This document shows positions 20,592-63,736 of a DNA stretch of 64,000 nucleotides, piece after piece (position 1 is the stretch's first letter; each line of letters opens with the position of its first letter). Both the position numbers and the translations under genes were made by a program. The notes under the pieces were generated by a model. It was not told the origin of the DNA and searched no databases. It saw only the letters and a list, made by a program, of their open reading frames with translations. The DNA is from Escherichia coli (lineage in GTDB: Bacteria > Pseudomonadota > Gammaproteobacteria > Enterobacterales > Enterobacteriaceae): assembly GCF_048403405.1 (NCBI RefSeq), contig NZ_CP183129.1. One strand, given 5' to 3'.

Positions 20592-20789
20592 TTCCCCTCA
20601 CCACGTTGCGTTGCTATTAACCCGCGGTCAATCGATTGCGACCACAGGTAATACATTATTCCTGTGGCTATCGGTTTTATCATTCAGTGACACACATCGC
20701 AATGAGTAAAACCGTTGAGGGCAAAAATGTGGCTTGCATCACACAAAAGAATCTCTTGGATTATTAGCAAAAAGCCGATGTTTTTACTG

Positions 20790-21482
20790 TCACGTCACCC
20801 GTTTTGCCCGACTTGCCTTCGTCCATTCTGGATTTGCACAGCGCGGACATAATTGTTTTTCCCCCGCGTTCATATGAATGATTTCACTGCAACGAATGCA
20901 GGCATAGTCCGCCGACTCGGGTACCACTTTGTAACGCTGAGTACAGTCACTGGGTAAAATAAGTAAGCCCGGTTTCACCTTGTCATCTTCAAAGAAATAG
21001 ACACTGATTTGCCCGTTGGTTTCGAGAATCGCCAGACGTACTTGCCCCAACTGCTCTACACCGCGCAATCGTAGCTCCATAAAGAACTCAAATTCCGTCA
21101 TGTTGGAGTTATTGAGTTTCGACCAGGCCAGCTCGCCATCTTCAATAATGACAACCGGCTTACCTTCCAGAAGATCTTCCAGTTTTTCACTGTGTGCCAT
21201 CAACCACATTACCAGGCGGTATAACAACGCCAGAGTAATAAAGACGATAAGTACCGGGACCATCGGCACATCATCATAAAACGCCACATCTCCCGCCGCT
21301 GATCCCAGCGTCAGAATGATTAACACTTCAAAAAGCGACATCTGCCGCACACCGCGTCTTCCGGTCATTTTGAGGAACAAAAAAACCAGTACAAAGGTAT
21401 AAAGACTACGTAGTGCCACTTCGCCAAGGAAATCAAAAGGCACTTTATCAAATGCCATACGGTGGAGATCAAACGCCTTCAT
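20790..21482 (-). CDS. ycaP: DUF421-family inner membrane protein YcaP
   Basis: 230-aa ORF with TM helices; synteny between serC and ycaO. Confidence 0.85.
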   Translation of the reverse strand: MKAFDLHRMAFDKVPFDFLGEVALRSLYTFVLVFLFLKMTGRRGVRQMSLFEVLIILTLGSAAGDVAFYDDVPMVPVLIVFITLALLYRLVMWLMAHSEKLEDLLEGKPVVIIEDGELAWSKLNNSNMTEFEFFMELRLRGVEQLGQVRLAILETNGQISVYFFEDDKVKPGLLILPSDCTQRYKVVPESADYACIRCSEIIHMNAGEKQLCPRCANPEWTKASRAKRVT

Positions 21483-21611
21483 TTTTATGCTCTTATCGTG
21501 GTTTATCCACTAAAAGCATAGTCAACAGTTCATCGGCATGGCGGCGGTGATAGCGCCTTTGAGATAAAACCCGTATTATTGCGCGCTTTCCGTACGACTA
21601 AAGTGATTTTC

Positions 21612-23372
21612 ATGACGCAAACATTTATCCCCGGCAAAGATGCCGCACTGGAAGATTCCATCGCTCGCTTCCAGCAAAAACTTTCAGACCTCGGCTTTCA
21701 GATTGAAGAGGCCTCCTGGCTGAATCCGGTGCCTAACGTCTGGTCTGTACATATTCGCGACAAAGAGTGCGCACTGTGTTTTACCAACGGTAAAGGCGCA
21801 ACCAAAAAAGCGGCGCTGGCTTCTGCACTCGGTGAATATTTCGAGCGTCTCTCAACCAACTACTTTTTTGCTGATTTCTGGCTGGGCGAAACCATCGCCA
21901 ACGGTCCGTTCGTGCATTATCCCAACGAAAAATGGTTCCCACTGAGCGAAAATGACGATGTGCCAGAAGGGCTGCTCGATGACCGTCTGCGCGCATTTTA
22001 CGATCCGGAGAATGAATTGACCGGCAGTATGCTGATTGACCTGCAATCCGGTAACGAAGATCGTGGTATTTGCGGTCTGCCGTTTACGCGCCAGTCCGAC
22101 AATCAGACCGTTTATATTCCGATGAATATCATTGGTAACCTGTACGTTTCTAACGGTATGTCCGCTGGCAATACCCGCAACGAAGCACGCGTTCAGGGGT
22201 TGTCCGAAGTTTTCGAACGCTACGTGAAAAACCGCATTATTGCTGAAAGCATCAGCTTGCCGGAAATCCCGGCAGACGTGCTGGCGCGTTACCCAGCGGT
22301 GGTTGAAGCCATCGAAACGCTGGAAGCAGAAGGTTTCCCAATCTTTGCTTATGATGGTTCGCTTGGCGGCCAGTATCCGGTGATTTGCGTGGTACTGTTT
22401 AATCCTGCTAACGGCACCTGCTTTGCCTCTTTCGGTGCGCATCCTGATTTTGGCGTAGCACTGGAACGTACCGTGACCGAGCTGCTGCAAGGTCGTGGCC
22501 TGAAAGATTTGGATGTGTTTACTCCGCCAACCTTCGATGATGAAGAAGTTGCTGAACATACCAACCTCGAAACGCACTTTATCGATTCCAGCGGTTTAAT
22601 CTCCTGGGACCTGTTCAAGCAGGATGCCGATTATCCGTTTGTGGACTGGAATTTCTCCGGCACCACGGAGGAAGAGTTTGCTACGCTGATGGCTATCTTC
22701 AACAAAGAAGATAAAGAAGTTTATATTGCCGATTACGAGCATCTGGGCGTTTATGCTTGCCGAATTATCGTGCCTGGCATGTCCGATATTTATCCGGCTG
22801 AAGATCTGTTGCTGGCGAATAACAGTATGGGCAGCCATTTACGTGAAACGATTCTTTCGTTACCAGGCAGCGAGTGGGAAAAAGAAGATTACCTGAACCT
22901 CATCGAGCAACTGGATGAAGAAGGTTTTGATGACTTTACCCGCGTGCGTGAGCTGTTGGGTCTGGCGACCGGGTCGGATAACGGTTGGTACACCCTGCGT
23001 ATCGGTGAATTAAAAGCCATGCTGGCGCTGGCTGGTGGCGATCTGGAACAGGCTCTGGTCTGGACCGAATGGACGATGGAGTTTAACTCATCAGTATTTA
23101 GTCCGGAACGCGCCAACTATTATCGCTGCCTGCAAACGTTGTTATTACTGGCGCAGGAAGAAGATCGCCAGCCGCTGCAATATTTGAATGCGTTTGTTCG
23201 CATGTACGGCGCAGATGCCGTGGAAGCCGCCAGTGCGGCAATGAGCGGCGAAGCGGCGTTTTATGGCTTGCAACCAGTAGATAGCGATCTGCACGCGTTT
23301 GCAGCACATCAGTCGTTGTTGAAGGCCTACGAAAAGCTGCAGCGCGCCAAAGCAGCATTCTGGGCAAAATAA
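21612..23372 (+). CDS. ycaO: YcaO-domain protein (ribosomal protein S12 methylthiotransferase accessory factor)
   Basis: ORF 21579..23372; start placed at ATG 21612 (MTQTFIPGKD...), 586 aa. Confidence 0.9.
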   Translation: MTQTFIPGKDAALEDSIARFQQKLSDLGFQIEEASWLNPVPNVWSVHIRDKECALCFTNGKGATKKAALASALGEYFERLSTNYFFADFWLGETIANGPFVHYPNEKWFPLSENDDVPEGLLDDRLRAFYDPENELTGSMLIDLQSGNEDRGICGLPFTRQSDNQTVYIPMNIIGNLYVSNGMSAGNTRNEARVQGLSEVFERYVKNRIIAESISLPEIPADVLARYPAVVEAIETLEAEGFPIFAYDGSLGGQYPVICVVLFNPANGTCFASFGAHPDFGVALERTVTELLQGRGLKDLDVFTPPTFDDEEVAEHTNLETHFIDSSGLISWDLFKQDADYPFVDWNFSGTTEEEFATLMAIFNKEDKEVYIADYEHLGVYACRIIVPGMSDIYPAEDLLLANNSMGSHLRETILSLPGSEWEKEDYLNLIEQLDEEGFDDFTRVRELLGLATGSDNGWYTLRIGELKAMLALAGGDLEQALVWTEWTMEFNSSVFSPERANYYRCLQTLLLLAQEEDRQPLQYLNAFVRMYGADAVEAASAAMSGEAAFYGLQPVDSDLHAFAAHQSLLKAYEKLQRAKAAFWAK

Positions 23373-23380
23373 AATCAAAT

Positions 23381-23399
23381 AGCCTACGCAATGTAGGCT
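23381..23399 (+). terminator. hairpin downstream of ycaO
   Basis: Inverted repeat AGCCTAC-gcaat-GTAGGCT 9 nt after ycaO stop; weak T-run. Confidence 0.4.
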
Positions 23400-23777
23400 T
23401 AATGATTCGTCTGAGTTATATTACGGGGCGTTTTTTTAATGCCCCGCTTTACATATATTTGCATTAATAAAATAATTGTAATTATAAAGTTAAATGTCGG
23501 TAATTTGTATTTAATAAATACGATCGATATTGTTACTTCATTCGCCTGGTGCTCCCTTTTAATTAACTGTTTTAGCGGAGGATGCGGAAAAAATTCAACT
23601 CATTTGTTAATTTTTAAAATTTATTTTTATTTGGATAATCAAATATTTACTCCGTATTTGCATAAAAGCCATGCGAATTACGGGCCTATAAGCCAGGCGA
23701 GATATGATCTATATCAATTTCTCATCTATAATGCTTTGTTAGTATCTCGTCGCCGACTTAATAAAGAGAGAGTTAGT
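23400..23777 (+). promoter_or_regulatory. focA-pflB multi-promoter regulatory region
   Basis: 378-bp AT-rich non-coding leader upstream of focA; FNR-like half-site pair ATGAT-ctat-ATCAA at 23704-23717 and TATAAT at 23725-23730; the pfl operon is known to be FNR/ArcA controlled. Confidence 0.5.
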
Positions 23778-24635
23778 GTGAAAGCTGACAACCCTTTTGA
23801 TCTTTTACTTCCTGCAGCAATGGCCAAAGTGGCCGAAGAGGCAGGTGTCTATAAAGCAACGAAACATCCGCTTAAGACTTTCTATCTGGCGATTACCGCC
23901 GGTGTTTTCATCTCAATCGCATTCGTCTTCTATATCACAGCAACCACTGGCACAGGAACAATGCCCTTCGGCATGGCAAAACTGGTTGGCGGCATTTGCT
24001 TCTCTCTGGGGCTGATTCTTTGTGTTGTCTGCGGAGCCGATCTCTTTACTTCCACAGTGTTGATTGTTGTTGCTAAGGCGAGTGGGCGAATCACCTGGGG
24101 TCAGTTGGCGAAAAACTGGCTAAATGTCTATTTTGGCAACCTGGTCGGCGCACTGCTGTTTGTACTTTTAATGTGGCTTTCCGGCGAGTATATGACCGCG
24201 AATGGTCAATGGGGACTAAACGTCCTACAAACCGCCGACCACAAAGTGCACCATACTTTTATTGAGGCCGTCTGCCTTGGTATCCTGGCAAACCTGATGG
24301 TATGTCTGGCAGTATGGATGAGTTATTCTGGCCGCAGCCTGATGGATAAAGCGTTCATTATGGTGCTGCCGGTCGCGATGTTTGTTGCCAGCGGTTTTGA
24401 GCACAGTATCGCAAACATGTTTATGATCCCGATGGGTATTGTAATCCGCGACTTCGCATCTCCGGAGTTCTGGACCGCTGTCGGTTCTGCACCGGAAAAT
24501 TTTTCTCACCTGACCGTGATGAACTTCATCACTGATAACCTGATTCCGGTTACGATCGGTAATATTATCGGCGGTGGTTTGTTGGTTGGGTTGACATACT
24601 GGGTCATTTACCTGCGTGAAAACGATCACCATTAA
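23778..24635 (+). CDS. focA: formate channel FocA
   Basis: ORF track frame 23439..24635; N-terminus VKADNPFDLLLPAAMAKVAEEAG; start placed at GTG 23778, 285 aa. Confidence 0.92.
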   Translation: MKADNPFDLLLPAAMAKVAEEAGVYKATKHPLKTFYLAITAGVFISIAFVFYITATTGTGTMPFGMAKLVGGICFSLGLILCVVCGADLFTSTVLIVVAKASGRITWGQLAKNWLNVYFGNLVGALLFVLLMWLSGEYMTANGQWGLNVLQTADHKVHHTFIEAVCLGILANLMVCLAVWMSYSGRSLMDKAFIMVLPVAMFVASGFEHSIANMFMIPMGIVIRDFASPEFWTAVGSAPENFSHLTVMNFITDNLIPVTIGNIIGGGLLVGLTYWVIYLRENDHH

Positions 24636-24689
24636 TGGTTGTCGAAGTACGCAGTAAATAAAAAATCCACTTAAGAAGGTAGGTGTTAC

Positions 24690-26972
24690 ATGTCCGAGCT
24701 TAATGAAAAGTTAGCCACAGCCTGGGAAGGTTTTACCAAAGGTGACTGGCAGAATGAAGTAAACGTCCGTGACTTCATTCAGAAAAACTACACTCCGTAC
24801 GAGGGTGACGAGTCCTTCCTGGCTGGCGCTACTGAAGCGACCACCACCCTGTGGGACAAAGTAATGGAAGGCGTTAAACTGGAAAACCGCACTCACGCGC
24901 CAGTTGACTTTGACACCGCTGTTGCTTCCACCATCACCTCTCACGACGCTGGCTACATCAACAAAGCGTTGGAAAAAGTTGTTGGTCTGCAGACTGAAGC
25001 TCCGCTGAAACGTGCTCTTATCCCGTTCGGTGGTATCAAAATGATCGAAGGTTCCTGCAAAGCGTACAACCGCGAACTGGACCCGATGATCAAAAAAATC
25101 TTCACTGAATACCGTAAAACTCACAACCAGGGCGTGTTCGACGTTTACACTCCGGACATCCTGCGTTGCCGTAAATCCGGTGTTCTGACCGGTCTGCCAG
25201 ATGCTTATGGCCGTGGTCGTATCATCGGTGACTACCGTCGCGTTGCGCTGTACGGTATCGACTACCTGATGAAAGATAAACTTGCACAGTTCACCTCTCT
25301 GCAGGCTGATCTGGAAAACGGCGTAAACCTGGAACAGACTATCCGTCTGCGCGAAGAAATCGCTGAACAGCACCGCGCTCTGGGTCAGATGAAAGAAATG
25401 GCTGCGAAATACGGCTACGACATCTCTGGTCCGGCTACCAACGCTCAGGAAGCTATCCAGTGGACTTACTTCGGCTACCTGGCTGCTGTTAAGTCTCAGA
25501 ACGGTGCTGCAATGTCCTTCGGTCGTACCTCCACCTTCCTGGATGTGTACATCGAACGTGACCTGAAAGCTGGCAAGATCACCGAACAAGAAGCGCAGGA
25601 AATGGTTGACCACCTGGTCATGAAACTGCGTATGGTTCGCTTCCTGCGTACTCCGGAATACGATGAACTGTTCTCTGGCGACCCGATCTGGGCAACCGAA
25701 TCTATCGGTGGTATGGGCCTCGACGGTCGTACCCTGGTTACCAAAAACAGCTTCCGTTTCCTGAACACCCTGTACACCATGGGTCCGTCTCCGGAACCGA
25801 ACATGACCATTCTGTGGTCCGAAAAACTGCCGCTGAACTTCAAGAAATTCGCTGCTAAAGTGTCCATCGACACCTCTTCTCTGCAGTATGAGAACGATGA
25901 CCTGATGCGTCCGGACTTCAACAACGATGACTACGCTATCGCTTGCTGCGTAAGCCCGATGATCGTTGGTAAACAAATGCAGTTCTTCGGTGCGCGTGCA
26001 AACCTGGCGAAAACCATGCTGTACGCAATCAACGGTGGCGTTGACGAAAAACTGAAAATGCAGGTTGGTCCGAAGTCTGAGCCGATCAAAGGCGATCTCC
26101 TGAACTACGATGAAGTGATGGAGCGCATGGATCACTTCATGGACTGGCTGGCTAAACAGTACATCACTGCACTGAACATCATCCACTACATGCACGACAA
26201 GTACAGCTACGAAGCCTCTCTGATGGCGCTGCACGACCGTGACGTTATCCGCACCATGGCGTGTGGTATCGCTGGTCTGTCCGTTGCTGCTGACTCCCTG
26301 TCTGCAATCAAATATGCGAAAGTTAAACCGATTCGTGACGAAGACGGTCTGGCTATCGACTTCGAAATCGAAGGCGAATACCCGCAGTTTGGTAACAACG
26401 ATCCGCGTGTAGATGACCTGGCTGTTGACCTGGTAGAACGTTTCATGAAGAAAATTCAGAAACTGCACACCTACCGTGACGCTATCCCGACTCAGTCTGT
26501 TCTGACCATCACTTCTAACGTTGTGTATGGTAAGAAAACTGGTAACACCCCAGACGGTCGTCGTGCTGGCGCGCCGTTCGGACCGGGTGCTAACCCGATG
26601 CACGGTCGTGACCAGAAAGGTGCAGTAGCCTCTCTGACTTCCGTTGCTAAACTGCCGTTTGCTTACGCTAAAGATGGTATCTCCTACACCTTCTCTATCG
26701 TTCCGAACGCACTGGGTAAAGACGACGAAGTTCGTAAGACCAACCTGGCTGGTCTGATGGATGGTTACTTCCACCACGAAGCATCCATCGAAGGTGGTCA
26801 GCACCTGAACGTTAACGTGATGAACCGTGAAATGCTGCTCGACGCGATGGAAAACCCGGAAAAATATCCGCAGCTGACCATCCGTGTATCTGGCTACGCA
26901 GTACGTTTCAACTCGCTGACTAAAGAACAGCAGCAGGACGTTATTACTCGTACCTTCACTCAATCTATGTAA
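24690..26972 (+). CDS. pflB: pyruvate formate-lyase (formate C-acetyltransferase 1)
   Basis: 760-aa [18 protein letters not shown]...; glycyl-radical motif RVSGYAVRF near C-terminus. Confidence 0.97.
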
Positions 26973-27012
26973 TTAGATTTGACTGAAATCGTACAGTAAA
27001 AAGCGTACAATA

Positions 27013-27040
27013 AAGGCTCCACGAAAGTGGGGCCTTTTTT
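27013..27040 (+). terminator. pflB intrinsic terminator
   Basis: GC hairpin GGCTCCAC-gaaa-GTGGGGCC followed by TTTTTT, 40 nt after pflB stop. Confidence 0.6.
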
Positions 27041-27165
27041 AGCACGAGAGCCTTTTTTGTCAGCTATCTATACTTTAAGGTGACTGCCAAAACAGACTCG
27101 ACGTAGCCTTCGAGCTGCGCACCAACACGGCCTCAGATGGGCCACATCTGGAGAAACACCGCAAT

Positions 27166-27178
27166 GTCAGTTATTGGT
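27166..27178. repeat. prophage attachment-site core, left copy (attL)
   Basis: GTCAGTTATTGGT identical to 62788-62800; preceded here by the native pflA ATG (27164-27166). Confidence 0.75.
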
Positions 27179-34353: not shown

Positions 34354-35460
34354 ATGTCTAAAACACGCGATGATTTCAGCTCAAAAACTGTAAGAGCTCT
34401 AGCACTACGGGCTGGTTATAGGTGCTCATTCCCCGGTTGTAATCAGCTTACAGTTGGCCCCAGTGATGAATCCTTAACATCTATCACAAATATTGGGGTA
34501 GCTGCGCACATTCATGCCGCAGCTCCTGGGCCATTAGCAAGACGATATGATCCTAATCAAACACCAGATGAAAGGAAAGATATAAATAATGGCATCTGGA
34601 TGTGTGTTAATCACAGCGTTGAAATTGATAGAGATGAAATTAGATATACAGCAGAAATTCTTAAAGAAATGAAGAAAGCCCACGAAGAAGAGATTAAAAA
34701 AGAGGTGAGCAATGGTTCTTCATCAACCAAACATAATGATTTCATTGCAATAGGTATAGACATTATCGTTTTCGGAGAGCTTACCGGAATCTCAACCAAT
34801 GAGTGGACTATAAAATTTGCAAACTTCTTTACTGGCGATTTATCTAAGTTAATATCTTTCAACGAAAGATTCCACTCCATCCCTACCGAAGAAAAATTTA
34901 TTCTAGTTAATCAACTTGGTGAGGGGCGTTTGTTATCAGCACCAATAAAATTAAATAAATTACCAGATAGCTATGAAGTAATCGTCCCTGTTGAAATAGA
35001 CACTCCGCGCATCAATTGCAATAGCCTCCCAATGGATTTAGATATTTTCACGACAGGCGATTTATTTGTAAATAGTTCTGGTGATATAGCTACGATATCG
35101 GGGTTTGAAGCTTTACCACAAAAAATATATACTTCCCTTTCCACCATTAGAGGTGAGATTTATTCCCATCCAACATTGGGTTCCAGAATAAGACAGTTCT
35201 TCCATGACTTTGAAGGAACAATGTGGCTAGACAAATTAGTTAAATTAGAAGTTATACGCTTATCTTGTATACCAATTTTTGATTCAATCACAAAAAACAA
35301 ATACACTCCATTACATTGTGTAAAAAATGTCAAAAATATTCGGGTGATACCAACTGAATATAAAGATAGCAAATTACCTATTGAGTTCACCCTTGATATT
35401 GAAGGTTTCGGCATCTGGTCCAAAGAAATAAGTGTTTTCTCACCTAAATACGATGAATAA
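34354..35460 (+). CDS. accessory (moron) protein with N-terminal HNH-nuclease-like motif; function unknown
   Basis: ORF 34318..35460 (TTG); probable ATG start 34354 with AAAGG SD. Motif RCSFPGC...AAHIHAAAPG...NNGIWMCVNHSVEID fits the HNH pattern; AT-rich; at the P2 Z/fun variable position. Confidence 0.6.
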   Translation: MSKTRDDFSSKTVRALALRAGYRCSFPGCNQLTVGPSDESLTSITNIGVAAHIHAAAPGPLARRYDPNQTPDERKDINNGIWMCVNHSVEIDRDEIRYTAEILKEMKKAHEEEIKKEVSNGSSSTKHNDFIAIGIDIIVFGELTGISTNEWTIKFANFFTGDLSKLISFNERFHSIPTEEKFILVNQLGEGRLLSAPIKLNKLPDSYEVIVPVEIDTPRINCNSLPMDLDIFTTGDLFVNSSGDIATISGFEALPQKIYTSLSTIRGEIYSHPTLGSRIRQFFHDFEGTMWLDKLVKLEVIRLSCIPIFDSITKNKYTPLHCVKNVKNIRVIPTEYKDSKLPIEFTLDIEGFGIWSKEISVFSPKYDE

Positions 35461-54805: not shown

Positions 54806-56644
54806 TTAATCAGCCAGATAAGGTTCAACTTTATCTTCCCATACACTAAATAAAGGCAAACAAGTTAAATAAAAGATAAAGACACAGGCAAAAACTGAAG
54901 TTGGTTGATAACAATGATTTACAGTATACCTGCCATGAGCCATCGTGTGTCTAATTGCAGCACCACCTTTCATATTGAACAATAAATCCATAGTCAATAC
55001 ATGATCACTATCAAAAACACCTTCCATTTCACTCCTATAATTTGCAAGCATTTGAGATAGGCTAGTAGCCTCCTCAAAAAGCGACACATCTATTTTCGTT
55101 GTTTCTTTTCTTCTTAATTCTAAAATCCATCTAATTGAATTCTCCAATTGCGGCAATAACAAATAACAGGCAGACACATAATCTCCCTGCCAAAGCTTAT
55201 AAAACCCCAAAGAAAATATTTCTGCATACCCAGGTGGAACAAATGCACTTTGTTGTGAGATTGGGTCAAATGTATTTTCATTTAATGAATACCTAGCCAA
55301 CACACTTTGCCTAACGACTTCAAACTCACCACAAACATAGACCTGATGCTCAATGTTACTAGTTCTTAAATAATTTGCACAAGCATCATTTAAACTTATA
55401 TCCCCCGCAGGATCCAAAGGTGAACGACTTGCTACAACGCGCCCTCTATCATCATAAACAACCGTTTCACTCATATTAAGAAAAAAATGTTTTTTAGCAT
55501 CGGAACGAGCTCTTTCCATAATTTCACTGGCACTTACAATCTTAAATCTAGCAATTAAAGTTTTAATTACCCTTGAGAAATCCAATTGATTATAAACATG
55601 CTCTTTCTGAGCGATAACATCACTAAGATCCATTGGTATTGCAAAGAAGTGCATTTCATCATTGATTTGATCTCGAATAGAATTCAATTCCTCTCTAATC
55701 TTTTTAATTTCTTCATTCATTCCACCAATTGCTCTAAATTCGCCAAGAGCAACTCTTAACCAATGAGCCTTCAATATTGAAGATGAAGACTGTTCAAATT
55801 GAGCCAATGTTATTTCTGACGCTTTAATTCTGCACCGTCTTCCTTGCTCTTCCATATCGTTTTTAACATATAATTCAGACGCAAAATAAAACAATTTTTT
55901 CACTGCATCAAAATAAGACGCTCCACAATGCTCATCAGCTATCTTTTCTGCATTCTCAGCCAATTGCAAGGGACACAATAAATTATTCTTATAAAGAATT
56001 TCAGAAACTCTTAATACACCGGTGAATATACCAGAGTCTATTAATACATGATATAACCTTAATGTCGAATCAACTATCCCCCCTTGTAGTTGTTTTTTCC
56101 TGCCAATAAGCATGCGCGATATTGCGATACCTCTATCCAAGCAGTCAACAACATCAAAAATATGGATATCACCTGACTCTTGTTTTTCTATTAAAGTATC
56201 GCAAGCATCATTAACCATTAGAGAATATGACTCTATTGCTTTATTGGCAGAGTCTATATCCTTACGGTTATTTATCCATAAAACATCACACACCCTAGAT
56301 ATAATATAAGGATTATCGGAGTTTTCTTTAATACAAGTTAATATTGTTGAAAAACTCTCCTTATAATCTGAAGGCCTATAGCCCCTCTCAGGATAGAGAA
56401 TGATTTTTGGCTCAAAACCGATAATATCACCAGACCTAGAAAATTTAAAATTAAACAACGCACGTAATAAATAGCAAAGCCGCCAAGAACTTACATCGTT
56501 TTTTAGCTTGTAAGATGACAACAACTGAACAAAATAAGACTCCATATCAAAATGAGAATAACTTCTTGGCGATGATAATATACTGGCGTATTCACTTTTT
56601 TTAAAATCATCAACTGAAATAGAAAAAACATCAAACTCGCTCAT
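54806..56644 (-). CDS. large accessory protein of unknown function (612 aa) at the P2 tin/old position
   Basis: ATG 56644 with strong SD AGGTGAGGA; no Walker A or other recognised motif except a possible Rx4H (IRHTMAHGRY) near the C-terminus; AT-rich. Confidence 0.6.
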   Translation of the reverse strand: MSEFDVFSISVDDFKKSEYASILSSPRSYSHFDMESYFVQLLSSYKLKNDVSSWRLCYLLRALFNFKFSRSGDIIGFEPKIILYPERGYRPSDYKESFSTILTCIKENSDNPYIISRVCDVLWINNRKDIDSANKAIESYSLMVNDACDTLIEKQESGDIHIFDVVDCLDRGIAISRMLIGRKKQLQGGIVDSTLRLYHVLIDSGIFTGVLRVSEILYKNNLLCPLQLAENAEKIADEHCGASYFDAVKKLFYFASELYVKNDMEEQGRRCRIKASEITLAQFEQSSSSILKAHWLRVALGEFRAIGGMNEEIKKIREELNSIRDQINDEMHFFAIPMDLSDVIAQKEHVYNQLDFSRVIKTLIARFKIVSASEIMERARSDAKKHFFLNMSETVVYDDRGRVVASRSPLDPAGDISLNDACANYLRTSNIEHQVYVCGEFEVVRQSVLARYSLNENTFDPISQQSAFVPPGYAEIFSLGFYKLWQGDYVSACYLLLPQLENSIRWILELRRKETTKIDVSLFEEATSLSQMLANYRSEMEGVFDSDHVLTMDLLFNMKGGAAIRHTMAHGRYTVNHCYQPTSVFACVFIFYLTCLPLFSVWEDKVEPYLAD

Positions 56645-62729: not shown

Positions 62730-63527
62730 ATGAGTAATTTAACTAATTGTAATACAACAGAAAATACCGCTACGGCGGGGGCTACCAAGTCAGTTATTGG
62801 TCGCATTCACTCCTTTGAATCCTGTGGAACCGTAGACGGCCCGGGTATTCGCTTTATCACCTTTTTCCAGGGCTGCCTGATGCGCTGCCTGTATTGTCAT
62901 AACCGCGACACCTGGGACACGCATGGCGGTAAAGAAGTTACCGTTGAAGATTTAATGAAAGAGGTGGTGACCTATCGCCACTTTATGAACGCTTCCGGCG
63001 GCGGCGTTACCGCATCCGGCGGTGAAGCAATCCTGCAAGCTGAGTTTGTTCGTGACTGGTTCCGCGCCTGCAAAAAAGAAGGCATTCATACCTGTCTGGA
63101 CACCAACGGTTTTGTTCGTCGTTACGATCCGGTGATTGATGAACTGCTGGAAGTAACCGACCTGGTAATGCTCGATCTCAAACAGATGAACGACGAGATC
63201 CACCAAAATCTGGTTGGAGTTTCAAACCACCGCACGCTGGAGTTCGCCAAATATCTGGCGAACAAAAATGTGAAGGTGTGGATCCGCTACGTTGTTGTCC
63301 CAGGCTGGTCTGACGATGACGATTCAGCGCATCGCCTCGGTGAATTTACCCGTGATATGGGCAACGTTGAGAAAATCGAGCTTCTCCCCTACCACGAACT
63401 TGGCAAACACAAATGGGTGGCGATGGGTGAAGAATACAAACTTGATGGTGTTAAACCACCGAAGAAAGAGACCATGGAACGCGTGAAAGGCATTCTTGAG
63501 CAGTACGGTCATAAGGTAATGTTCTAA
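62730..63527 (+). CDS. pflA: pyruvate formate-lyase activating enzyme with phage-derived N-terminal extension
   Basis: Radical-SAM motif CLMRCLYC; matches PflA from [11 protein letters not shown] onward; the native ATG is absent here (AAG TCA GTT) and the only in-frame start is ATG 62730, adding about 19 residues. Confidence 0.85.
62788..62800. repeat. prophage attachment-site core, right copy (attR), inside pflA 5' coding sequence
   Basis: GTCAGTTATTGGT identical to 27166-27178; continues into pflA codons (CGC ATT CAC ...). Confidence 0.75.
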
Positions 63528-63570: not shown

Positions 63571-63736
63571 TTCCGCTCTGCATAAATAATTCAGAGCTCT
63601 ATTTCTAACGCCCTTACAGCACAGCTTCCAAATGTATTACCCAAACCGCCAGTATATGTCCTGCGGCTTACGCGCATTTCTCGATTATGTAAAAACGGGT
63701 CAGATCTGCCAGAGTCAGCGTCACCGACCACAATAA

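Follow-up and report, generated by a model that had tools for sequence, protein, structure and literature searches.

The FNR site of the focA-pflB leader in an Escherichia coli genome and its probable relation to two overlapping promoters

In the leader of focA, a near-consensus binding site for the anaerobic regulator FNR is followed closely by a perfect TATAAT hexamer. This arrangement raises the question of whether the hexamer is the -10 element of the promoter that FNR activates or belongs to a promoter of its own, with the FNR site serving a start elsewhere. The question is examined here in an E. coli genome (contig NZ_CP183129.1), in a stretch of 64,000 nucleotides that is referred to below as the window. 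A first-pass annotation, made from the letters of the sequence, had recorded the FNR site and the hexamer as a pair and had linked them to the anaerobic control of focA-pflB, mainly because the downstream activase gene pflA seemed to be disrupted.

The window contains the gene block aroA-serC-ycaP-ycaO-focA-pflB and is collinear with the chromosome of K-12 MG1655 over 20744-27178, at about 98% identity. The two genes that follow the leader are:

23778-24635, + strand: focA, with a GTG start, 285 aa, no amino-acid differences from K-12, intact
24690-26972, + strand: pflB, 760 aa, intact, three amino-acid differences from K-12

The 405-bp spacer between ycaO and focA, which is found in 5423 of 5426 complete E. 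coli genomes, carries seven substitutions relative to K-12, none of which falls within 23680-23800. Because the latter segment is identical to that of MG1655, data obtained in K-12 transfer to it base for base; a K-12 coordinate in NC_000913.3 equals 978244 minus the window position, and the U00096.2 coordinate is the NC_000913.3 value minus 777. A terminator-like hairpin of its own lies after pflB, and the FNR site is therefore not expected to drive pflA directly.

The site itself is the FNR-like 14-mer ATGATCTATATCAA, which is centred at 23710.5 and agrees with TTGAT-N4-ATCAA at 9 of 10 positions. Both its coordinates and its closeness to the consensus are exactly as the first-pass annotation had given them.

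23704-23717, no strand assigned: FNR binding site ATGATCTATATCAA (consensus match, K-12 identity, ChIP data of Myers 2013, and conservation)

In the supplement of Myers 2013 (PMC3688515), the focA motif is TTGATATAGATCAT at 953750 (U00096.2) and is marked as bound. TTGATATAGATCAT is the reverse complement of ATGATCTATATCAA, and its coordinate converts exactly to 23704-23717, which makes the 14-mer the FNR site mapped for focA-pflB. The FNR ChIP-seq summits of the same study lie at 953741 and 953746, 10-15 bp from the motif, and ATGATCTATATCAA ranks among the high-scoring genomic FNR motifs in its supplement (Myers 2013; PMC3688515). focA is also among the FNR targets found by ChIP-chip (Grainger 2007). 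Anaerobic occupancy of the site by FNR in vivo is thus documented, by ChIP-seq and ChIP-chip data from K-12, through the identical K-12 sequence. Comparison with mapped pfl promoters and FNR ChIP data had been proposed as the check on the annotation, with mapped sites elsewhere in the leader as the outcome that would speak against it; the K-12 ChIP-seq site coincides with the 14-mer. Table 1 of Myers 2013 (PMC3688515) places focA-pflB among the operons that FNR activates directly and records a rise in both sigma-70 occupancy and expression under anaerobic conditions. In addition, promoter 6 of this operon is inhibited when FNR is inactivated (PMC3181329). The focA-pflB FNR site is accordingly ordinary, already known biology, a textbook site. 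A CRP site was considered at 23704-23717 and rejected, as the half-sites TGAT/ATCA are of the FNR type and not of the TGTGA/TCACA type.

For conservation, 80 focA loci were collected across different Enterobacteriaceae species; an alignment of the 180 nt that precede focA was built from 77 of them and the window (n = 78). All 78 sequences agree at 23703-23709 and at 23714-23717, and positions 23710 and 23712 of the central spacer vary, which is the signature expected of a dyad. Within the ycaO-focA spacer, ATGATCTATATCAA is the only good FNR match, the next best having three mismatches. A second good FNR site, which Myers 2013 counted, was sought in the same spacer, where all other candidates have at least three mismatches.

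As a bare pattern, the 14-mer is within the range of chance: the 64-kb window holds five FNR-like 14-mers with at most one mismatch where 2.7 are expected, and five or more turn up in 11 of 100 shuffles. The other one-mismatch matches lie at 258-271, 34547-34560, 34625-34638, and 55001-55014; the last three are located in a prophage (see below), inside long ORFs, and look like chance matches. This lack of enrichment would suit the reading that the focA 14-mer, too, is a chance match and has no regulatory role in this strain. We give that reading next to no credence, as the identical K-12 sequence is occupied in ChIP experiments, the half-sites are invariant while the spacer between them varies (in the 78 Enterobacteriaceae sequences and in five further lineages), and the intergenic region offers no other good match; for practical purposes, the ChIP and conservation data refute it. 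It is the context that makes the pair of FNR site and TATAAT real, namely the sole good match in the spacer, the invariant half-sites around a varying N4, and the identical site bound in K-12 ChIP-seq.

The hexamer that follows the site is present as the first-pass annotation had stated, but it was placed at 23725-23730, 2 nt from its true position (23727-23732). TATAAT occurs 19 times in the window, the two strands taken together, and this copy is accompanied by a mapped transcription start.

23727-23732, + strand: TATAAT, probable -10 hexamer of the upstream promoter (Kim 2012 start 9 nt downstream; conservation)
23741, + strand: transcription start (A), probably used with TATAAT (Kim 2012, converted through the K-12 alignment)

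The TSS-seq supplement of Kim 2012 (PMC3415461) gives for focA a start at 953726 (U00096.2, minus strand), with 56 reads and a 37-nt 5′UTR, and an upstream sequence that ends in ...TATAATGCTTTGTTA. This start is the A at window position 23741, 9 nt after TATAAT. The cultures in that study, for which no oxygen status is given, were grown in M9-glucose and shaken ("constant agitation"), and the strongest start was kept within 10 bp; a single listed focA start is therefore expected, because the filter drops weaker starts within that distance (Kim 2012; PMC3415461). With a 6/6 match at 23727-23732 and a mapped start downstream, the hexamer has the features of a sigma-70 -10 element. With respect to a start at 23741, the FNR site is centred at -30.5, where it covers the -35 region and the spacer; 9 bp separate it from TATAAT, and the best -35 candidate at 17-bp spacing, ATGATC (23704-23709, 3/6), is the left FNR half-site. 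A location at -30.5 is a non-activating position for this start. Taken with the published start that lies 10 nt further downstream, this geometry argues against TATAAT serving the FNR-activated start. The hexamer is probably the -10 element of an upstream, overlapping promoter that is FNR-independent, which we take to be of the type labelled '6A'.

The downstream start follows from published distances. Table 1 of Myers 2013 (PMC3688515) places the top focA FNR site at -40.5 from the known TSS, and in the same study 19 of 23 activated promoters have a site at -41.5 +/- 4 nt. From the site centre at 23710.5, a distance of -40.5 leads to an activated start at about 23751 (23752 if the distance is -41.5); the start is back-calculated in this way. 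The supplement of Myers 2013 gives no TSS coordinate. By this distance, the site occupies the class II position (about -41.5 from a mapped start). The -12 to -7 region of a start at about 23751 contains the hexamer TAGTAT (23740-23745), with a TG upstream at 23737-23738, as expected of an extended -10 element; the spacing suggests that TGtTAGTAT is the extended -10 of the FNR-dependent promoter, P6.

23737-23745, + strand: TGtTAGTAT, predicted extended -10 of P6 (Myers 2013 geometry; invariant in 78/78)
23751-23752, + strand: predicted P6 start (-40.5 or -41.5 from the site centre; G23752 invariant)

Two distinct starts, 10 nt apart, are thus on record at this locus, of which 23741 is directly mapped and the other is implied by the published distance. 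Relative to the latter, TATAAT falls at -25 to -20, and the first-pass annotation's implied assignment of this hexamer to the FNR-activated promoter does not hold. A generic sigma-70 scan detected neither of the proximal focA promoters. Both lack a good -35 element, so that they are missed by such a scan, as expected for activator-dependent or -35-less promoters. Taken together, it is very probable that FNR activates the proximal focA-pflB promoter, which we take to be promoter 6 in Sawers' numbering, from the site at 23704-23717 and that TATAAT belongs to a second, overlapping promoter.

Both core promoters are also overlain by binding heptamers for NarL. These are listed as focA sites in Table 3 of the MotifAdjuster study (PMC2718512), which took them from Kaiser & Sawers 1995, and were located in the window sequence.

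23712-23718, + strand: NarL heptamer TATCAAT, overlapping the right FNR half-site (MotifAdjuster Table 3, PMC2718512; located in the sequence)
23729-23735, + strand: NarL heptamer TAATGCT, overlapping TATAAT (MotifAdjuster Table 3, PMC2718512; located in the sequence)

In the alignment of 78 sequences, the bases that separate the FNR site from TATAAT vary. All 78 share the 19-nt block 23728-23746 (ATAATGCTTTGTTAGTATC), and T23727 is present in 77. This block is more uniform than the two -10 hexamers alone require; also within it are a NarL heptamer, the TG dinucleotide that extends the -10 element, and the start at 23741. A more distant set, consisting of Hafnia, Edwardsiella, Serratia, Yersinia ruckeri, and one member of the Erwiniaceae, has unchanged half-sites and no indels between the elements. 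In these five lineages, TATAAT is replaced by TATACT, with T1, A2, and T6 kept, and the extended -10 is kept as TGnTAG(T/A)(A/C)T, where n is T or C in Serratia and Yersinia and the hexamer is TAGACT in the Erwiniaceae. An FNR-operated layout of two promoters may be ancestral to all Enterobacterales. Conservation backs both hexamers and their spacing, not which of them FNR uses, which is decided by spacing and TSS data, and the roles of the two hexamers are inseparable by conservation from the overlapping NarL heptamer.

Two simpler readings of the locus have to be weighed against a pair of promoters. In the model implied by the first-pass annotation, the FNR site and the adjacent TATAAT form one FNR-activated promoter. 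focA-pflB is indeed activated by FNR, and TATAAT is a perfect and nearly invariant hexamer with a mapped TSS 9 nt downstream; this model nonetheless appears quite improbable and is already disfavoured. With its centre at -30.5 from 23741 and only 9 bp to the hexamer, bound FNR would cover the -35 region and the spacer of the promoter that it is supposed to activate. The activating position is -41.5 +/- 4 nt in 19 of 23 promoters, and the focA site has its -40.5 from the start 10 nt downstream (Myers 2013); a start at about 23751 has the separate, equally conserved TGtTAGTAT at a suitable distance.

The other simpler reading also retains a single promoter: 23741 and about 23751 could be the same 5′ end, which methods or databases place 10 nt apart, or else a processing product could account for one of them. 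Work by Sawers from 2005/2006 is said to describe the focA-pflB mRNA as heavily processed, which would count for this reading, as would the facts that the downstream start is derived from a published distance and that TSS-seq gives only one start. We judge it very improbable. Primary 5′ ends are enriched in the TSS-seq protocol, whose filter also discards weaker starts within 10 bp (Kim 2012; PMC3415461), so that a lone entry is no surprise, and a start at 23741 alone would leave class II activation by FNR unexplained. There are, moreover, two well-placed -10 elements, both invariant across a large evolutionary distance, and the title of Kaiser & Sawers 1997 (Microbiology 143:775) speaks of "overlapping promoters". 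The start at 23741 would correspond to the second promoter of that paper.

If the leader contains an FNR-dependent proximal promoter overlapped by a TATAAT promoter, its operation can be pictured as follows. In the absence of oxygen, a dimer of [4Fe-4S]-FNR would bind the inverted repeat at 23704-23717. The centre of this repeat lies 40.5-41.5 bp ahead of the start at about 23751/2, in the class II position, from which FNR would substitute for a -35 element and recruit RNA polymerase to TGtTAGTAT (23737-23745). The TATAAT promoter, with its start at 23741 one helical turn upstream of that of P6, would have the left FNR half-site as its -35 region, and FNR bound at -30.5 would thus occlude it while activating the downstream promoter. 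When FNR is inactive, basal transcription of focA-pflB would come from the TATAAT promoter. Both the pairing of each hexamer with its start and the repression of the TATAAT promoter by FNR are suggested by this geometry. In the presence of nitrate, NarL bound at the heptamers 23712-23718 and 23729-23735 would repress both core promoters, and the location of these heptamers accounts for the lower expression of focA-pflB in nitrate.

Further elements lie upstream in the ycaO-focA spacer:

23448-23476, + strand: far-upstream sigma-70 promoter TTTACA-17-AATAAT (scan; table of Shimada 2014)
23465-23518, no strand assigned: ArcA binding region (ChIP and motif, supplement of Park 2013; K-12 953949-954002, U00096.2)
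23637-23649, + strand: IHF-consensus-like AATCAAATATTTA (WATCAANNNNTTR), between the upstream and proximal promoters (read from the sequence)

The far-upstream promoter is the only one found by the generic sigma-70 scan and is given as a constitutive focA-pflB promoter by Shimada 2014. An anaerobic sigma-70 ChIP peak at 954032 (U00096.2), approximately window position 23435, lies about 20 bp from it (Myers 2013; PMC3688515). The promoter begins directly after the hairpin of the ycaO terminator (23425-23447). The ArcA region carries two substitutions relative to K-12 (23488 and 23496), one of which turns the direct-repeat GGTTAA into AGTTAA. A search against Rfam returned no RNA family in 23300-24000. 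Involvement of IHF at pfl is reportedly a finding of Sirko and co-workers from 1993.

Downstream of pflB, the first-pass annotation had described pflA as disrupted. The gene is interrupted beside pflB, and a complete, conserved ORF is re-formed at the far end of the inserted DNA, at 62730-63527, through the integration of a P2-like prophage. The collinearity with K-12 ends at 27178, after the fifth codon of pflA, and is restored from 62786 onward.

27164-27178, + strand: pflA stub, first five codons (MSVIG), beside pflB and ending in the att core
27179-62788, - strand: P2-like (Peduovirus) prophage, ~35.6 kb (collinearity break, Pfam, phage identity, and att alignment)
62730-63527, + strand: re-formed pflA, 265 aa, consisting of 20 phage-derived N-terminal residues and PflA residues 2-246

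At its left end, the prophage carries ogr, D, U, and T on the minus strand, and at its right end C and int on the plus strand. Pfam domains within it include Ogr_Delta, Phage_GPD, Phage_P2_GpU, a tail tape measure protein, and a tyrosine integrase, and the int-C region is 98-99.8% identical to that of the Peduovirus phages pro147 and pro483 and of Yersinia phage vB_YpM_46. A four-way alignment of the free-phage attP, the K-12 attB, and both window junctions (attL and attR) reveals a 13-bp att core, GTCAGTTATTGGT, at 27166-27178 and again at 62789-62801. The gene set, the tyrosine integrase at one end, the duplicated core, and the reciprocal recombinants attL and attR identify a P2-like prophage, which is integrated at the start codon of pflA by clean site-specific recombination. 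Of 5426 complete E. coli genomes, 404 (about 7%) have the same int-pflA junction.

In the re-formed gene, phage DNA adjacent to attP supplies an ATG (62730) and 19 further codons in frame, and the native ATG has become AAG at 62787. Residues 21-265 of the product are identical to K-12 PflA (245/245), all 12 nucleotide differences from K-12 in the body of the gene are synonymous (12/12), Pfam recognizes Radical_SAM and Fer4_12 domains, and RefSeq annotates a 798-nt pflA (WP_000067979.1). Judged by its sequence, pflA therefore appears to be intact as a full-length radical-SAM ORF under purifying selection. Downstream of the gene (63583-63624), the window lacks ycaK and most of ycaN, which in K-12 span ~1.5 kb. 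This absence was considered as part of the prophage event and rejected, because the resulting pflA-ycaM junction recurs in 1021 of 5426 complete E. coli genomes and is thus a common polymorphism among lineages.

What has changed for pflA is the DNA in front of it. Since the phage replaces the 5′ end of the gene (start codon, ribosome-binding site, and promoter side), the expression signals as well as the coding sequence there are phage-derived. In K-12, a sigma-70 ChIP peak lies upstream of pflA (Myers 2013; PMC3688515); in the window, the native promoter region of pflA now faces the prophage. The re-formed gene follows int on the same strand after 32 nt, an arrangement in which read-through from the prophage into pflA is possible. 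It is conceivable, although on balance we think it unlikely, that synthesis of the PFL-activating enzyme, and hence activation of PflB, is set by prophage transcription (C-int read-through) and not by the native pflA promoter, which would couple anaerobic formate metabolism to lysogeny. A text search of the literature found no paper that describes a P2-type attachment site in pflA or tests expression of the fusion.

With its FNR site intact, the strain should induce FocA and PflB normally under anaerobic conditions, and to call pflA "disrupted" would wrongly predict a PFL-negative strain. More generally, a gene truncated at a prophage boundary may reflect a clean integration event by which the gene is restored at the opposite end of the prophage, and a perfect TATAAT beside an activator site is not necessarily the -10 element of that activator; at focA, the spacing rule (-41.5) and the published starts point to an overlapping promoter, one that FNR would shut off.

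e14 and phage 21, both of which integrate in icd, are examples of temperate phages whose insertion into a host gene brings a substitute for the end of that gene. The prophage at pflA resembles them in that integration occurs within a gene and DNA adjacent to attP restores a complete ORF. It differs in that the replaced part of pflA is the 5′ end, with a net addition of 19 residues.

The FNR site in the window is orthologous to that of promoter 6 of K-12 focA-pflB: the 14-mer, its distance to focA, and the flanking order ycaO-focA-pflB are the same, and the core promoter is without differences, whereas further upstream there are seven substitutions, two of them in the ArcA region. The overlapping promoters at focA-pfl (Kaiser & Sawers 1997) would be the same arrangement as that seen when the data of Myers 2013 and Kim 2012 are combined, two starts 10 nt apart with one FNR site. 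Among other class II promoters, narG and dmsA share with P6 an inverted repeat about 41 bp upstream of the start, the lack of a usable -35 element, and an (extended) -10, and focA at -40.5 stands alongside class II FNR promoters in Table 1 of Myers 2013 (PMC3688515). Unlike narG and dmsA, focA has a nested promoter with a perfect TATAAT one helical turn upstream, together with interleaved NarL heptamers, so that a single bound dimer of FNR is placed to switch on one start while blocking the other.
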